Below, in pieces: positions 22,101-29,106 of a stretch of 44,708 bases of DNA; positions within the stretch are counted from its first letter, which is position 1; each line of letters starts with the position of its first letter. Source of the stretch: Escherichia phage Ayreon. The stretch lies in sequence record MF807953, one strand, 5' to 3'. The notes below the pieces were generated by a model. That model was not told the origin of the DNA and searched no databases. It worked only from the letters and a program-made list of their open reading frames with translations. The position numbers and the translations under genes are program-made.

Positions 22101-22935
22101 GTCAGTAGGTACATCGGAAAACACGGGAAAAATGTTGTGCCTTAAAAACCACAGAAGCAGCGCTCAAGTGCTGTTAAATGGCGATGATGGCGCGGTGCAA
22201 CTACTAAGCGGTACTGTCAACGGTGCTACAGCACAGGCGCTAACCATCAACAAAGATGAGGTTAACTCAACTGCTGATTTAGTAATTAGAAAACAGTCAG
22301 GGACTGGCAATCGTTTTGTTTTAAAGAACGCAGGTAATGCAGAACTACCGTTTAACATCAGTGTATGGGGTTCAAGTGATCGACAAAACGTTTTTGAGGT
22401 TGGAACGTCTGCTGCGTATCTGTTTTATGCGCAAAGAACGCCAGCAGGCCAGTTGTTTGATGTAAATGGCGCTATTAATTGCACAACGCTGAATCAGTCA
22501 TCAGACCGCGACCTTAAAGACGATATTCTCGTTATCAGCGACGCGACGAAAGCAATCCGCAAAATGAACGGGTACACCTACACGCTCAAGGAAAACGGCC
22601 TTCCTTATGCTGGCGTTATTGCACAGGAAGTAATGGAGGCGCTACCGGAAGCCGTAGGATCGTTTACTCGTTACGGTGAAGAATTGCAGGGTCCGACCAT
22701 TGATGGCAACGAGCTACGCGAAGAAACGCGTTACCTCAATGTTGATTATGCGGCGGTGACTGGTTTACTTGTCCAGGTCGCCCGTGAAACAGATGATCGC
22801 GTTACCGCGCTGGAAGAGGAAAACACAACGCTACGTCAAAATCTGGCAACAGCAGACACCCGGATCAGCACTCTGGAAAATCAGGTAAGCGAACTGGTTG
22901 CACTTGTCCGGCAGTTAACAGGAAGCGAACATTGA
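19171..22935 (+). CDS. stf: Side tail fibre protein, mosaic: lambda Stf-like N-terminus, Ala/Ser-rich repeats, novel distal region, C-terminal intramolecular chaperone (peptidase S74-like)
   Basis: N-terminus MAVKISGVLKDGAGKPVQNCTIQLKA... matches lambda Stf; Ala/Ser/Thr-rich KTSETNA-type repeats follow; beyond about residue 340 the sequence is different and lower in GC. The C-terminal ~150 aa carry an SDRDLK motif and a coiled-coil tail typical of auto-cleaving chaperone domains. Confidence 0.8.
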   Translation: MNMAVKISGVLKDGAGKPVQNCTIQLKAKRNSTTVVVNTVASENPDEAGRYSMDVEYGQYSVILLVEGFPPSHAGTITVYEDSRPGTLNDFLGAMTEDDARPEALRRFELMVEEVARNASAVAQNTAAAKKSASDAGTSAREAATRATDAAGSARAASTSAGQAASSAQSASSSAGTASTKASEASKSAAAAESLKSAAATSASAAKTSETNAAASQKSAATSASTATTKASEAATSARDASASKVAAKSSETSAASSAGIAASSATAAGNSAKAAKTSETNADNSAQAAADSQTASANSATAAKKSETNAKNSEAAAKVSETNAKASENKAKEYLDKVGGLVSPMTQYDWPVVTGNESFYIKIAKLSDPGSNNCHVTLMVTNGGAYGSPYGNIDFIEISARGLPSSLTADNVSRYLSIRRLGPTGLINSMQMRYGLVKDDGFIEVWAFQRAFINGAKVAVLAQTARTELYIPDGFVKQTAAPSGYVESPVVRIYDQLNKPTKADLGLSNAMLIGAFGLGGSGLVLDGKMTDKELLQELRAKGGCFWRSGKPTGSESTIFSHGSGIFSRCGDTWSAINIDYESGRVKIYSSNDNRLNNGTFNINELYGTKYKPSKSDVGLGNVTNDAQVKKSGDIMSGNLSITKATPSLFLRSKSGTAHVWFQNEDQSERGVIFAPTNTDTLGEVHIRAKNAKGQSSGDFIVRHDGMVEARDLTLAGKTKGAKAEFANTSTRSDDTTVSIKGSQHTPLVLTRNNTIKNLSIGFKVDDVDQKYLGIYGDGDLYFGGYSDHTKNSKVITQAILDSGVTVGGKTTFSDLATFNAGMSGPIEPEAIEGMTIDLNDLIIKFTDKGSVKYYHCKTAGGGSNITNKPDGVGGNFLLRVESIRKVSDSDYINMQTLISGDKGRVHVRFVTNGNWTAWSEHVVSGWNQDVTVRSLTSTTPSKLGGGRVDVLGSTSDYSSMNCAVRGVDSTGTNSAWSVGTSENTGKMLCLKNHRSSAQVLLNGDDGAVQLLSGTVNGATAQALTINKDEVNSTADLVIRKQSGTGNRFVLKNAGNAELPFNISVWGSSDRQNVFEVGTSAAYLFYAQRTPAGQLFDVNGAINCTTLNQSSDRDLKDDILVISDATKAIRKMNGYTYTLKENGLPYAGVIAQEVMEALPEAVGSFTRYGEELQGPTIDGNELREETRYLNVDYAAVTGLLVQVARETDDRVTALEEENTTLRQNLATADTRISTLENQVSELVALVRQLTGSEH

Positions 22936-22974
22936 TATCCTTCAAGCTCTGAAGGAGGCTGTTCCCGGTACGTT

Positions 22975-23118
22975 CAGACTGTTGTTGAGCTGGAGATCGC
23001 AACGGAGGAAGAAACCTCATTGCTGGAAGCCTGGAAAAAGTATCGGGTGTTGCTGAACCGTGTTGATACATCAACTGCACCTGATATTGAGTGGCCTACG
23101 AACCCTGTCAGGGAGTAA
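22975..23118 (+). pseudogene. tfa: 3' remnant of tail fibre assembly gene tfa
   Basis: In-frame translation immediately after the stf stop reads ...[45 protein letters not shown], which resembles the C-terminus of lambda-type Tfa; there is no start codon and no N-terminal part. Confidence 0.6.
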
Positions 23119-23642
23119 TCATTGGGATTATGCCGCAGCACGTCGTATGCAAGAACGTGCTGCGGTTGGATGCTATTTTTTCCCTGAAGCGGAAAACATT
23201 ACTACAGTTATGACGATGAATTACAAGGGGTTAAATGATGCCACGGCATAGCGATATTGAAATAGCCTGGCATGCTTCAATACAGTGGGAACCGAATGGC
23301 CGGAAGACCGTCACCACACAGCGGTTTGTCTAGGGACTGAGCAATGTTCACAGGTACTGGGCTATGAGAGCTGTTAATAAACTGATAAATACGGCAACAC
23401 CACTTAGGTCAGCGTAGCCGGTAAATCGAAAAGCAACTTCATCCAGGAATTTCTGTCAGTGTTGTTTGGAGATCTGATTGCCATGATGGATCAAGAGTTC
23501 TCTCTTATTGCCGGCTTGGTGTTGACTGAAAACTGGTATGATGCCGGGCGCATGTTGGCTAATCATTGGGAATACTGCCGACACTGAACCATTCGCTCTT
23601 TTGATTTGGGGCGGTGCGACATAGCATGTAGGGAGTAAATCA

Positions 23643-24146
23643 ATGACTGAATTTCTTGGAAAACTGTTCGACAGGGTTTATACGGAGAAGGATTTCGGCA
23701 TTAATGTCGCCATATTTGTCGCGGGACTTGCCGGAATGAGCTGTTATCTGATCCTTCACGACTATGTCCTGACGCTGTTCGCATTTATTATTCCATTCCC
23801 GATCGTCAAGATCATTGCCGGAGGATGGCATCAGCGTCTTCTTGCCCAGAAAGGAAAAGCTGCTTCAAGGCAGCAGTTGGCCGCACTTTATGATTCACTT
23901 ACGGACAGTGAAAAAAACGTGGTACAGCACTTTGTAGCATTCGGCGGTGCTGTGATGACATGGGGACAAATGAACCGGCTTGATGATCCGCAAACTGGTG
24001 TGGAGTCCCTGGTTCGGAAGGGATTACTGGGTACCTCCGTGTCCGTGGATGGAATGCACGAGACCTTCGAGCTGGATCTGACGCTTTTTGCCTTTGCTTA
24101 CCGTTGGCGAGCCTCTCAGAATACGGACTCTGCGGCAGAGGGTTAA
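23643..24146 (+). CDS. Small membrane protein, possible superinfection exclusion protein (SieB-like)
   Basis: 167 aa with two N-terminal hydrophobic helices (VAIFVAGLAGMSCYLIL and LTLFAFIIPFPIVKIIAGGW) and a soluble C-terminal domain; located in the accessory region between tail fibre and int; ends at a bidirectional terminator. Confidence 0.45.
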   Translation: MTEFLGKLFDRVYTEKDFGINVAIFVAGLAGMSCYLILHDYVLTLFAFIIPFPIVKIIAGGWHQRLLAQKGKAASRQQLAALYDSLTDSEKNVVQHFVAFGGAVMTWGQMNRLDDPQTGVESLVRKGLLGTSVSVDGMHETFELDLTLFAFAYRWRASQNTDSAAEG

Positions 24147-24267
24147 GGCGTACGTGAGGTATCCGGAGATGCTAAAAGCGCGGAACTCATTAATCCTCGC
24201 CCTAAGGGAAATACGTTCTTTCAGAATGGTGGTCAACTGTTCTGCCGAAAGTGTAAAAGGATGGTAA

Positions 24268-24297
24268 TAAAAAACCCGGCTTTGCCGGGTTTTTTTA
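24268..24297. terminator. Bidirectional rho-independent terminator
   Basis: Hairpin cccggc-ttt-gccggg flanked by an A-run upstream and a T7 run downstream; serves convergent genes on both strands. Confidence 0.75.
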
Positions 24298-24299
24298 CT

Positions 24300-24428
24300 T
24301 TATGCAGCTTTTCGATTCATAGCCTTTAGTTCTTGATCGATAAACGTTTGAATTTCTTTGATTTTATCAACGTTTTTGATGGCTTCTCGCAACAGCGCAA
24401 TGCGGCGTGCTTCAATTTTATTCATCAT
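24300..24428 (-). CDS. Small basic helical protein (42 aa), hypothetical
   Basis: Minus-strand ORF MMNKIEARRIALLREAIKNVDKIKEIQTFIDQELKAMNRKAA, not in the supplied ORF track; AGGAG ribosome-binding site 7 nt upstream of the ATG; its stop abuts the bidirectional terminator. Confidence 0.45.
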   Translation of the reverse strand: MMNKIEARRIALLREAIKNVDKIKEIQTFIDQELKAMNRKAA

Positions 24429-24481
24429 ATTGGCTCCTGACTTACCTAGCTAGGTAAAACTCACTTTTTAAGTTGACTAAG

Positions 24482-24844
24482 TTAAACGAATGCCATTGCT
24501 GATAAGCGGTTGGCTCCGTCTTGAATACTGTCGTTATCGCCACGCTCGATCGCTTCTGCGACTTGGCGCATTAAAAGCACTGCTTGGCGGGCATTTGCCA
24601 TAACTCTTTCATCGTCCCAAACACCGACTTGAAGCAACTTCGTAATGATATCTGCAGTGGCGTCAGAAAGATCGGCAATTTCAGCGAATGACGGGTTAAA
24701 GTCGCGTAGTTGCTCAACCGATTTTGCGTTTACATGTTTCACAAACCATGCAGAGACTTCTTGGATTTTCCAGTACAACTCTAAAGCTAAATCATTACTG
24801 TTAACATTAGCAGCACTATAAATACTAGCAACGTTTGAGTTCAT
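24482..24844 (-). CDS. Hypothetical protein (120 aa), AT-rich accessory gene
   Basis: 120-aa minus-strand ORF in visibly AT-rich DNA, directly upstream (same strand) of the 42-aa ORF; I recognise no family. Confidence 0.5.
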   Translation of the reverse strand: MNSNVASIYSAANVNSNDLALELYWKIQEVSAWFVKHVNAKSVEQLRDFNPSFAEIADLSDATADIITKLLQVGVWDDERVMANARQAVLLMRQVAEAIERGDNDSIQDGANRLSAMAFV

Positions 24845-24966
24845 TGTTTGTTCGTTTCCAGCTGGTACCCATAAATTGGGACAAATCCTAGCTTATTGGA
24901 AAATTTTTATCCACAGTATTTGGTGTTTAATGAATATGGGGCTTAAAGAACAAATTTTCAACTGCT

Positions 24967-24996
24967 TTGAGCGATTATATTGAAAGGCGGTATAAT
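24967..24996 (+). promoter_or_regulatory. Candidate sigma70 promoter (TTGAGC - 18 bp - TATAAT)
   Basis: Perfect -10 TATAAT at 24991-24996 with a -35-like TTGAGC; no CDS follows, and a 16-bp GC palindrome lies about 65 nt downstream. Confidence 0.35.
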
Positions 24997-25140
24997 TTTA
25001 TGTCAACTAGTATAGCAATAAGAAGTAAAAATTCACTTAAAGTCATAATATTTCAGTAGGGAGCCGCGGCTCCCTTGCGTATCTTTTTGTCACTTCACCG
25101 TCTGGTCGGTGTCCTGCTGAGACCTCTAACATCCTGTTTT

Positions 25141-25613
25141 TGTTTGTGTTGTACACCGCCCAATCAACAGTGTCAATAGAACAAAGATTGCTGCATGTAC
25201 AAATGTTCTTTGGCTACAAATACACCTACTGATCATGTTCTGCTATGCTCTGATACCTCCAAAATGTACAATCAGCGGCATGAATTTTTCTTTGTACATA
25301 TGATTGTACATAATCAAAGAGACAGCAATTATGACAAGCCTTTTGGCCGCAGAGGTAGCGAAAAGAAGAACCTTTGCCATTATTTCTCACCCCAATAATT
25401 AAGCCAAAATTAAAGCTCTTTTACTCTTTCAAAATCCTTTCAGTTAATTGAGGTTGAGCCATATAACTCATTTAAATACATTTAGTTATGTGGCTTCTTT
25501 AATTGAAAATTCTTTCATGTAACTTTAAATCGATCTGCTTGCTTTCATCAAAAATCTGTACATGTGCTTGTACATAATGTACAAAACAGCAGAGGTGTTT
25601 TTTTATTTGTACA
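25141..25613. promoter_or_regulatory. Array of nine TGTACA motifs upstream of int (candidate protein-binding / att arm region)
   Basis: TGTACA occurs at 25141, 25187, 25256, 25284, 25296, 25557, 25569, 25578 and 25608 within about 470 bp, including the repeated unit TTGTACATAAT, in AT-rich non-coding DNA ending at the int start. Confidence 0.5.
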
Positions 25614-26840: not shown

Positions 26841-26973
26841 AACTGACATTTTGCATAGGCAGAACGCAATTATGCATATTGCGGTATAATCCCCTTCTTA
26901 AAACTGTAAGAACTGCTTGCTAATCCTTGCAGTTTTTGATTATAACATTTTTATTTGTTTATTAGGATTTTTG

Positions 26974-29106
26974 ATGGAACTGTTACAGGAACACGGGGCG
27001 ATACTTAAAGTTGTAATCATGCCTACTACTGGGGAACAAACCATAATCCAAGGTTTCGATACTGGCCTCCTCAACCCAGAGATATCCAACATTCTTTTTT
27101 TATTGGCCAAAACACCAAAAGAAATTAGTGAGATTTTTGTCAATGAAAATGATAACTTTCAGCCTACTCTAAGCGGGCTAAATCCTATTTTTTTAATATC
27201 TAAAGAAAATCTTGAAAAAATACCAGATATTTATCAAACGCCATTTTGCTTAATTTTTTGTGCTAAAGAAGATTTTTCGTATTTTTGTGCTTTAAAAAAA
27301 CATTTTGCTATACCACCTATAATTTGTTGCAATTCTAAACGCGCTGATCTACCACTTAATAAGATTAATAGTATATACTCATTTGATAAGGTGCTCTTCT
27401 CTCGGTTGAAATTCATTGAGGATAAAATAAGAAAAAATCACAGTGAAAAGAAAATATCAACGAAGTTGAAGCGAAGAGGGGCTTTATTTAATAAATCACC
27501 TTGGAGATCGACGCTTAACAATTCAACACTACCCAATGAGTTGTTAATTGAATCACTTGGCTATATGCTATCTCCACCAAAAAGAATTAAAGATGGTAGT
27601 AGCAAAAGAGAGTTTATAGAAATAATACTTCATAGCGTTGATGCATACACCGAATGTTTAAAGGAATTAGATATACCACTTCCAACGGAAGTCTTACTTT
27701 TTGCTCCGGGTATGCACTCTTTTTTATATGATAAAAATAATGACTTTTATGAGTTAATAACGGAAAATTTATCCACAATTGAGAAAAAATTCCTTATTGA
27801 TGGAGTGTTGAGGAATCCAGGCTATTCTGGAATTAGACTTGATATAAATTCAGATAGAAAAGAACTTTTTAAAAGTCCTGCTTTCCGTTACCTCACCTCA
27901 CTAAGACGAGCTGAAATGCGATTAACAACAGCTGCGATTACTTTATTTAGCATAAATAAAAAAATCCCAGCAATAAGATTGCCAAATGCAATAAATCATT
28001 ACTCCAATTATTTGAAAAATCTTGAAGATCTTGCAACTTCTTCTGGGATAAATAGTGAAGCATTCATCACTAAATCTAAAGCATTCAATACTGTTATTCG
28101 AAGAGCCCTTGGTTGCAAGTTGAGAACATATATAAGTAAAAACTATAGCGATTTGTCCTTTGTTTGTGATGTACCATTGGATTGGATTAGGTTTAATAAC
28201 ATACCTATAATGTTCAGTCATGAGATATCAAGAATAAATGCTACGCCTGGTAACGTTCTTCTACAGAGCGCCTCTGCTTTTCCGCGCGTTTTAGTAAAAG
28301 CATCTGAGTTGAGAAAGGTTTTAGTTATACGTTCTTTTGAGCCTGATGATCACTTAAAGTTCATATTAGAGAACGCAATTGAGATATTTAAAAAACAGAT
28401 GCCAGATCTTGATTGCGAGATTATTGATGTTAGATCGAAAGCTGAGTTTATTGATGCTCTAAATCAATATCAAGGTCATATTCTTGTTATGGATTGTCAT
28501 GGAAACCATGATGGCAATGGGAGTCATGGATGGTTAATAATAGGTGAGGATAAAGTGGACACTTGGAGTTTGAGAAAAATAGCAAGAATTCCTCCTATCG
28601 TAATTCTGAGTGCATGTTTAACATCTGCCCTAAGTGGTTCTCATGCCTCTGTTGCTAATGGCTTCGTTATAAGTGGTGCATTAAGTGTCATCGGAACATT
28701 ACTGCCTGTAAATGCGATAGACTCTGCTGTTTTTGTAAGTCGGTTGATCTACCGGTTTTACGAGTTTCCTTCGACGCTATCTACAAATTTTACACATGTT
28801 AATGTAAGGCTTTTTCTTTCTGTTTTTCTTAGGATGTCCTATGCAAGCGATTTAATAAGAGGATTTTTATCTGAAGATTTGATACCGAATAATTCATGGA
28901 AGAAAGATGCAGTTGATATTAACATGTATATAAACATGCTTCACCATGATTGGTATGATTATGTAATTAACAAATTGACGATGTTAACGGGGCTCACGAA
29001 AAAAGATGTACTTGATTTTATCGATAGAAAATTATTCATAACCGAAACTATGTGCTATAGCCAAATTGGATTTCCAGATGCAATCACAATTAGTCTTAAA
29101 GATTGA
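26974..29106 (+). CDS. Large cargo protein with C-terminal CHAT/caspase-like protease domain
   Basis: 711 aa from MELLQEHG. Strikingly low GC with Asn/Lys/Ile-rich composition. The C-terminal region has a caspase-fold His/Cys dyad signature: strand plus HG in ILVMDCHGNHDG and strand plus Cys in PIVILSACLTS, followed by GFVISGALSVIGTLLPVNAIDSAVFVSRLIYRFY, typical of CHAT domains. The N-terminal ~500 aa have no features I recognise. Confidence 0.65.
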   Translation: MELLQEHGAILKVVIMPTTGEQTIIQGFDTGLLNPEISNILFLLAKTPKEISEIFVNENDNFQPTLSGLNPIFLISKENLEKIPDIYQTPFCLIFCAKEDFSYFCALKKHFAIPPIICCNSKRADLPLNKINSIYSFDKVLFSRLKFIEDKIRKNHSEKKISTKLKRRGALFNKSPWRSTLNNSTLPNELLIESLGYMLSPPKRIKDGSSKREFIEIILHSVDAYTECLKELDIPLPTEVLLFAPGMHSFLYDKNNDFYELITENLSTIEKKFLIDGVLRNPGYSGIRLDINSDRKELFKSPAFRYLTSLRRAEMRLTTAAITLFSINKKIPAIRLPNAINHYSNYLKNLEDLATSSGINSEAFITKSKAFNTVIRRALGCKLRTYISKNYSDLSFVCDVPLDWIRFNNIPIMFSHEISRINATPGNVLLQSASAFPRVLVKASELRKVLVIRSFEPDDHLKFILENAIEIFKKQMPDLDCEIIDVRSKAEFIDALNQYQGHILVMDCHGNHDGNGSHGWLIIGEDKVDTWSLRKIARIPPIVILSACLTSALSGSHASVANGFVISGALSVIGTLLPVNAIDSAVFVSRLIYRFYEFPSTLSTNFTHVNVRLFLSVFLRMSYASDLIRGFLSEDLIPNNSWKKDAVDINMYINMLHHDWYDYVINKLTMLTGLTKKDVLDFIDRKLFITETMCYSQIGFPDAITISLKD

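Follow-up and report, generated by a model that had tools for sequence, protein, structure and literature searches.

The genes analysed here have two kinds of closest described counterparts. One is SieB of the phages lambda and P22, a classic exclusion protein that is prophage-borne, small (184-192 amino acids, aa) and located in the inner membrane. Its gene is part of the immunity region, next to N (gene 24 in P22) and opposite the leftward early operon, and in P22 a second start codon within its reading frame gives rise to Esc, by which the phage is protected from its own SieB. The other is represented by RnlA-RnlB and LsoA-LsoB, toxin-first modules acting in abortive infection, the antitoxin of which is degraded by ClpXP or Lon. 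P22 SieB has been described to halt macromolecular synthesis midway through superinfection, its mechanism being poorly understood (PMC10883804), and for tailless Vibrio prophages a study reports a variable accessory locus that is border-proximal, regulator-flanked and enriched for defence and toxin-antitoxin genes (PMC11630473). Here we analysed 44,708 nucleotides of DNA from Escherichia phage Ayreon (MF807953), referred to as the window, and in particular the region 23643-24844 between the end of the tail-fibre gene (22935) and the start of int (25623). An initial annotation made from the sequence of the window had proposed a SieB-type membrane protein of 167 aa and, convergent with it, a two-gene minus-strand module coding for 120 aa and 42 aa, and the three open reading frames (ORFs) are indeed found at 23643-24146 (+), 24482-24844 (-) and 24300-24428 (-). 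Our comparison shows that they form two cassettes, independent of each other and separately mobile, whose ends meet at a single bidirectional terminator. Reading these two cargo cassettes as a SieB-like exclusion gene and a toxin-antitoxin-like or abortive-infection pair is plausible in our view, if slightly short of probable.

The 167-aa gene is preceded, 7 nt before its ATG, by the Shine-Dalgarno sequence AGGGAG (23630-23635, plus strand, read from the sequence), and an equivalent GGGAG or AAGGAG is present at five orthologous loci. Hydropathy gives two hydrophobic segments at residues ~20-38 and ~42-60, separated by a loop of 2-3 residues (His-Asp). The AlphaFold model, built with 17 homologues, has a mean predicted local distance difference test score (pLDDT) of 72, with low values for the N-terminus and the membrane part and ~90 for residues 80-150, which follow the order helix-strand-helix-helix-strand-strand of a winged helix; before it, a long helix extends from the second membrane segment as far as residue 84. 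The layout shown by the model is that of a predicted N-terminal amphipathic helix, a two-helix membrane hairpin, a long basic linker helix and a cytoplasmic winged-helix domain, in agreement with the two N-terminal transmembrane helices and the soluble C-terminal domain that had been read from the sequence before.

Direct comparison of the 167-aa protein with Pfam, PHROGs, NCBIfam and PADLOC gave sub-threshold matches only, with E=0.01 for PHROG 1301 (SieB/Esc). The Pfam SieB family (PF14163, gathering cut-off 26 bits) also matches nine of the 17 close homologues, all of them below the cut-off (best E=1.4e-4). We used a profile of 14 family sequences against 1.84 billion cluster representatives (clusters at 50% identity) and retrieved 136 proteins at E<=1e-3 and 79 at E<=1e-10, most of them 140-175 aa long and aligned over nearly their full length. 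From 87 full-length members scanned against Pfam 34 match SieB at E<0.01 (best 3.6e-8), and two of the 20 members whose scores were read pass the cut-off, namely P0061 with 33.6 bits and P0052 with 26.3 bits. Both had been picked by their ranking in a local phmmer search against lambda SieB, and as they pass PF14163 and are also retrieved by the profile of the 167-aa family (E=7e-23 for P0061, E=1e-26 for P0052), homology to SieB is supported transitively. Comparison of the 87-sequence alignment with single-sequence templates in hhalign gave E=1.9e-4 and a probability of 47% over 122 columns for lambda SieB, and E=1.2e-4 and a probability of 55% for P22 SieB. In the alignment with the lambda protein the two membrane helices are covered together with the N-terminal helix before them and, after them, the basic linker and a portion of the winged helix. 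The family and P22 SieB have the motif L-[FY]-D-S-L-T-x-x-E-[KR] in common where the C-terminal domain begins. Searching libraries of predicted viral structures and of the PDB with Foldseek, we found at the third rank among the viral models a 195-aa P22 'N operon' protein (E=0.011, template modelling score 0.42, 107 columns), which by its size and description is presumably SieB. We conclude that the 167-aa protein is probably a divergent member of the SieB superfamily that lies outside Pfam's own limits for SieB. Of the SieB-type assignment made in the initial annotation the distant homology thus stands (profile bridging, hhalign E~1e-4), whereas membership in the Pfam family, which had been named as the check, does not, the protein scoring 13.4 bits (E=0.06) against the cut-off of 26 bits.

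Compared with SieB of lambda and P22, the window protein is likewise a small prophage-borne inner-membrane protein, somewhat shorter with its 167 aa, and it has the same succession of N-terminal segment, two membrane helices, basic linker and cytoplasmic domain in collinear alignments, the cytoplasmic domain opening with L-[FY]-D-S-L-T-x-x-E in both. Differences are the loop between the membrane helices, which has merely 2-3 residues in the window protein, the position of the gene, and the internal Esc start of P22, for which no conserved counterpart is seen. Moreover, the homologues of the 167-aa protein are mostly solitary and located in chromosomal or plasmid defence islands and not in phage immunity regions. 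The wider family of 136 clusters can be described as SieB-type proteins with a membrane hairpin and a winged helix that mostly lie outside immunity regions and near defence systems. With its additional sequences and a domain model of good confidence it is a basis for studying how infection is sensed by proteins of the SieB type.

The genes found next to the homologues point in the same direction. In other genera the homologues are solitary cassettes in variable regions near defence-type genes: the one from Pantoea stewartii follows immediately after a Pycsar pair, a HEPN-RES protein is encoded near the one from Cronobacter, and in Edwardsiella it is found in an integrase-bearing region with AAA_15/AAA_21 and DUF4145 genes nearby. 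In Raoultella and relatives a 1650-aa protein with NERD, kinase and helicase domains is encoded near the homologue, and in Sodalis the gene stands alone beside yicC. DNA similarity to the Raoultella loci begins 26 nt before the ATG and stops just before the terminator, so that the 167-aa gene moves as a unit.

Upstream of it the window contains a decayed gene remnant (23399-23590, plus strand), which is truncated at its 5' end and has an internal deletion and a premature stop. It was found by tblastn against the window with a Cronobacter gene (L011:4369-4953; 49% identity over 102 columns, E=5e-21, the alignment crossing stop codons), the counterpart in Cronobacter being an intact 194-aa ORF immediately before the 167-aa homologue. 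The N-terminus of the 194-aa protein has a weak match to the Pfam ribbon-helix-helix family FitA-like_RHH (E=0.013), which is below the cut-off. Since a partner of the 194-aa type was not seen beside the other homologues, the 167-aa protein presumably acts alone here.

The decayed partner with its ribbon-helix-helix signal suggests a former regulatory pairing, and it is one reason to consider that the 167-aa protein is instead a membrane-tethered winged-helix regulator or adaptor, which binds DNA or a protein partner and serves another role in lysogenic conversion. The part of the protein that is modelled with confidence is a classical winged helix, most of its Foldseek matches are transcription regulators or DNA-binding proteins, and the poorly understood mechanism of SieB itself leaves room for such a function (PMC10883804). 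We nevertheless regard a regulator as unlikely, because the homology to SieB extends beyond the winged helix to the membrane hairpin and the linker, and because the gene is solitary and mobile with homologues that lie beside defence genes and not in regulated operons.

If the 167-aa protein is an exclusion protein, the hairpin would anchor it in the inner membrane with the basic helix and the winged helix facing the cytoplasm. In a lysogen it might then remain inactive, and only a trigger brought in by a superinfecting phage and sensed by the winged helix would make the membrane part halt macromolecular synthesis and abort the infection, by analogy with SieB of P22 and lambda. Such a prophage-expressed abortive-infection role is a real possibility on the grounds of this analogy, to which we would give somewhat less than an even chance. 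Several observations weigh against it. Besides the Pfam score discussed above, the hhalign probabilities are just 47-55%, and most Foldseek matches are generic winged-helix regulators. The gene adjoins the attachment site and thus lies outside the immunity region, and at the sequence level the first 75 codons of six orthologues contain no conserved in-frame internal ATG, GTG or TTG from which an Esc-like protein could start; an ATG at codon 32 is present only in the clade of E. coli and Raoultella, without a ribosome-binding site. Directly upstream of the gene no convincing promoter was found, the nearest promoter-like site being ~360 nt upstream, and the pattern scan detected no terminator between the tail-fibre gene and the 167-aa ORF. 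With no near promoter and no terminator separating it from the late tail genes, expression of the 167-aa gene in a lysogen can only be presumed. A PDB sequence search with the family profile returned nothing meaningful, tblastn with the 167-aa protein found no match in the phage collection, and a second SieB-like ORF was not found in the window.

That the minus-strand pair and the 167-aa gene are separate cassettes follows from their distribution. At the loci examined, no homologue of the 167-aa protein (Raoultella, Edwardsiella, Cronobacter, Pantoea and Sodalis) has the pair as a neighbour, nor is the 167-aa gene found next to the pair in Enterobacter, Pantoea, Vibrio and Photobacterium. As the two are thus never found together outside E. 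coli, they do not constitute one functional region. In E. coli each cassette is present in 39 of 5426 complete genomes (at least 99% identity), 38 of which carry the whole 1.76-kb region as a block, so the E. coli occurrences are one recent lineage of the region. Among the phage records searched, other phages integrating at prfC match the attachment-site end only and lack both cassettes.

Both transcription units end at the same bidirectional intrinsic terminator (24269-24295, both strands), which was found by a pattern scan and by folding. It is a hairpin of 12 pairs (six G-C pairs extended by A-U) with a loop of 3 nt, placed between an A-run and a T-run, and it folds with -18.8 kcal/mol on the plus strand and -17.7 kcal/mol on the minus strand (z-scores -4.2 and -4.6), none of 200 shuffles folding as well on either strand. 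The single bidirectional terminator postulated earlier for the converging units is thus confirmed. A scan with Rfam around it gave sub-threshold matches only.

The second gene of the minus-strand operon (24300-24428, minus strand) codes for the 42-aa protein and had been missed in the ORF track available to the initial annotation. It is a real gene: the protein is annotated as WP_001378645.1, the gene is conserved across genera, and the ratio of nonsynonymous to synonymous substitution rates (dN/dS) is 0.24 when the E. coli gene is compared with that of Enterobacter and 0.23 for two copies from Vibrionaceae, synonymous sites being saturated in the remaining comparisons. We compared the window with five extracted orthologues (L003, L014, L013, L017 and L018), and the frame of the small gene is the sole one that is open in all six sequences. 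The small gene is therefore, judged by its sequences, under purifying selection, and a gene of 42 codons with these properties is a clear example of a real gene overlooked by ORF-length filters. Its strong AGGAG ribosome-binding site, already noted before, lies at 24434-24438 (minus strand), 5 nt before the first ATG, and AGTCAGGAG at this site is conserved in Enterobacter; upstream of the other small-gene orthologues purine-rich sites are found (AGGAG, AGGA, GAGGA and, less clearly, GGG). The protein has an isoelectric point (pI) of 10.0 and is predicted to be helical from its hydrophobic periodicity. In the orthologue alignment few positions are invariant, and the C-terminus always reads K-(K/Q)-A-A.

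The first gene of the operon (24482-24844, minus strand) codes for the 120-aa protein, an acidic protein (pI 4.5) for which AlphaFold predicts a four-helix bundle with confidence (pLDDT 87, predicted template modelling score 0.79). Its family alignment has a variable N-terminus of ~20 residues and a conserved core from about residue 21 on, in which the invariant residues cluster as G74-x-W76-x-x-x-R80-x-x-x-N84-A85-x-Q87-A88. The start codon is uncertain, some annotations beginning 22 codons later. From an ATG further upstream, at 24872, a 15-codon ORF (MGTSWKRTNNELKRC, 24825-24872, minus strand) extends in a different frame into the beginning of the 120-aa gene. The corresponding ATG of Enterobacter is in the frame of the gene and gives a product of 123 aa, and that of one metagenomic variant is likewise in frame, with 129 aa. 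Around this upstream ATG the block TAGGAT-K-TGTCCCA-W-TTTATG is conserved.

A search with the single sequence of the 120-aa protein gave only seven close homologues. Using tblastn against phage records we found one further ORF, 30% identical, in the tailless (Vinavirales) Vibrio prophage 10N.286.55.C3_PE001, where it is followed by a gene of 43 codons, and a profile including this ORF retrieved 19 proteins of the large-gene family from Enterobacter, Klebsiella, Kosakonia, Pantoea, Vibrio, Salinivibrio and Photobacterium. At every large-gene locus examined an ORF of 42-44 codons follows directly. In addition to the five loci from which orthologues were extracted, a 42-aa gene is called in L004, L005 and L019, and in Vibrio cholerae L016, which is nearly identical to L017, the source annotation lacks the small gene. 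In the six sequences that were read, spacers of 25-61 nt separate the two genes, a hairpin with a T-run lies directly downstream, and most of them have a recognisable purine-rich ribosome-binding site. Gene order, spacing and downstream terminator are thus kept at identities as low as 26-33% for the small and ~30% for the large protein, and in every orthologue the net charges of the two proteins complement each other (large protein -1 to -9, small protein +1 to +4). The two adjacent co-oriented genes are inherited as a unit with its own terminator and a promoter-like site, and this conservation across genera supports a functional coupling of the 120-aa and the 42-aa gene. The proposal that the minus-strand genes are a pair is hence well founded, as they are conserved together in the window and at eight further loci where the small gene is called.

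A candidate for the promoter of the operon, similar to sigma-70 promoters, was found at 24933-24961 (minus strand; TTGAAA, 17 nt, CATATT; nine of 12 matches). Such promoter-like sites are no more numerous in the region than in shuffled sequence, and both hexamers align with TTGTAA-17-CATATT of the Enterobacter loci; we infer that this is the putative promoter. The best sigma-70-like match of the region is a different one (24967-24996, plus strand; TTGAGC, 18 nt, TATAAT; 10 of 12 matches), which points away from the 120-aa gene and toward the attachment site and prfC and may drive prfC in the lysogen.

The possibility that the accessory DNA is decaying, and that the small ORF or even the whole set of three is a relic without function, has to be judged against these data. 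The decayed gene fragment immediately upstream of the 167-aa gene would fit such a view, as would the ambiguous start of the 120-aa gene with its upstream ATG, out of frame in the window and in frame in Enterobacter. On the other hand the small gene is under purifying selection, the large protein is conserved while its synonymous sites are saturated, length, ribosome-binding site and terminator are kept across genera, and the AlphaFold models are confident. Because of the selection on the small gene and the conservation of the large protein, non-functional DNA is effectively excluded as an explanation.

The pair is found in lambda-like phages, in a Pantoea prophage with a Mu gp48-like baseplate gene and in tailless Vinavirales. 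Within the prophage it lies outermost of all gene cassettes, or comes second behind dinI, and reads inward from the host junction, bordering prfC in the window, pepN and dinI in Enterobacter L003 and a formate/nitrite transporter gene in Pantoea. In Enterobacter (L003 4478-4738, L004 4472-4738) it is located between the phage dinI and a tail-fibre invertase gene (Resolvase/HTH_7), without the 167-aa gene. In Vibrio and Photobacterium it lies beside fur, adjoining and convergent with a gene for an S24/LexA-type repressor, and thereby occupies the border-proximal, regulator-flanked position described for the accessory locus of tailless Vibrio prophages; the gene pair itself is not described in the section consulted, and most genes of these loci are unannotated (PMC11630473). 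The conservation from lambda-like prophages of E. coli to tailless ones of Vibrio, at or near the prophage border, marks the pair as selected cargo.

The repressor gene next to the Vibrio and Photobacterium pairs could also mean that the pair is no host cargo and acts in the phage life cycle, for instance on excision, on induction or on how stable the repressor is. Being located at the attachment junction or one gene from it, its upstream DNA changes on integration and excision, and a tail of the ClpX type would suit a timed regulator. We consider a life-cycle function quite improbable, as the pair is common to unrelated phage types with different regulatory circuits, occurs in just 39 of the 5426 complete E. 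coli genomes, and is missing together with the 167-aa gene from the other prfC-integrating phages searched, which is typical of dispensable cargo.

Neither of the two minus-strand proteins is a member of a recognised family, as the initial annotation had stated, and no significant match to the pair was obtained in PADLOC, Pfam, NCBIfam or the PDB sequences. The one family match of the 120-aa protein is PHROG 13858 (function unknown, E=4.4e-4), and Foldseek with its model against the viral models gave nothing below E=0.6. We found no paper naming the protein accessions or the gene pair. The pair belongs to no described family. As prophage cargo it is ordinary; what makes it notable is its presence in tailed as well as tailless prophages and the conserved C-terminal end of the small protein.

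Three assignments of the 120-aa bundle were considered and dropped. A HEPN toxin was rejected, as Arg-x(4-6)-His is not conserved, the invariant residues being R80 and N84, and H37 is not conserved in Vibrio; a histidine phosphotransfer (HPt) domain was dropped on the same residue conservation. Membership in the TomB (YbaJ)/Hha family was rejected as there is no Pfam match and the fold match is generic.

Recognition motifs of ClpX at the C-terminus of its substrates include the LAA of the ssrA tag and RRKKAI of MuA, and the K-(K/Q)-A-A end of the small protein seems to resemble them. Like RnlA-RnlB and LsoA-LsoB, the pair is a two-gene operon carried as cargo of mobile elements with the larger protein first, and its smaller partner has a basic C-terminus ending in Ala-Ala that is compatible with rapid proteolysis. 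It differs from them in having no similarity in sequence or fold, in a 120-aa bundle without a recognisable nuclease motif and in a partner of just 42 aa. In a toxin-antitoxin-like scheme the 120-aa and the 42-aa protein might bind each other as a complex, with the Ala-Ala end making the 42-aa partner short-lived. When host expression is shut off the small protein would disappear and the bundle protein would be released, as in a toxin-first or abortive-infection pair. Though the likeliest role that we see for the pair, it is doubtful at present: no DNA-binding antitoxin fold was found for the pair, and the absence of any match in the family and defence databases named above counts against it as well.

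No toxin fold is among the fold matches of the pair either. An alternative is a host-modulating or counter-defence module, in which the bundle and the small helical protein would bind and block a defence system or a factor of the host, comparable to TomB-Hha or to small anti-adaptor and anti-defence proteins. The match of the bundle to the TomB (YmoB) fold has 6% identity and is one among thousands of helical-bundle matches, the 42-aa protein has about half the length of Hha (YmoA), and the cassette, different from TomB-Hha, is restricted to prophage borders. We regard a host-modulating or counter-defence module as rather unlikely. Returning to a toxin-antitoxin-like pair, its most far-reaching version would be an undescribed anti-phage system, in which a bundle effector is kept in check by a 42-aa partner removed by ClpXP, and which is exchanged across realms. 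We think that this is improbable; if true, the pair would have been exchanged between tailed lambda-like phages and tailless Vinavirales prophages.

The setting of both cassettes is that of prophage cargo. A stretch of 1.76 kb is identical in a prophage of E. coli strain 103605, with a tail-fibre assembly gene on one side and the host prfC on the other, and the NCBI pipeline annotates all three ORFs there as hypothetical proteins. In a phage DNA search 25162-25600 matched the attachment-site region of the prfC-integrating phages cdtI and 2H10, and also the segment annotated as 'duplication due to insertion' in Stx-converting phages. From the matches to strain 103605 and to cdtI and 2H10 the region can be identified as the attachment-site end of a lambda-like E. 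coli phage integrating at prfC, where its cargo ('moron') zone lies. The GC content falls from 0.52-0.63 in most structural genes to 0.45-0.38 in the cargo region, being 50% in the 167-aa gene, 44% in the 120-aa gene, 36% in the 42-aa gene and 38% in the upstream spacer. The AT-rich character ascribed to the whole region earlier thus applies mainly to the minus-strand module (36-44% GC) and not to the 167-aa gene.

At the junction of the 103605 prophage the identity stops at window position 25392, 61 nt inside prfC, and an ORF at 25304-25402 codes for a PrfC-like N-terminus (AAEVAKRRTFAIISHP). The phage therefore brings a replacement 5' end for prfC, and the window, in which int comes next, is in the phage (attP) arrangement. 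Just past the integrase gene a 729-aa ORF (26917-29106, plus strand; GC 0.31-0.37) gives a full-length match to BovA, a protein of the anti-phage defence system Borvo (PADLOC PDLC03831, E=2e-241), which places known defence cargo across the attachment site from the two cassettes. At the other side, 22900-23075 (plus strand) overlaps the 3' end of the tail-fibre gene and partially matches the Rfam small-RNA family IS009 (RF02111) with 88.6 bits (E=4e-20) in a permissive scan, compared with a gathering score of 117; the family was not reported in the wider stretch scanned at the gathering threshold. Finally, a stretch of 93 nt (25060-25152) has 82-86% identity with DNA that is non-coding in Escherichia phage LLS and Citrobacter phage phiNP, and it contains a terminator-like hairpin at 25065-25079.

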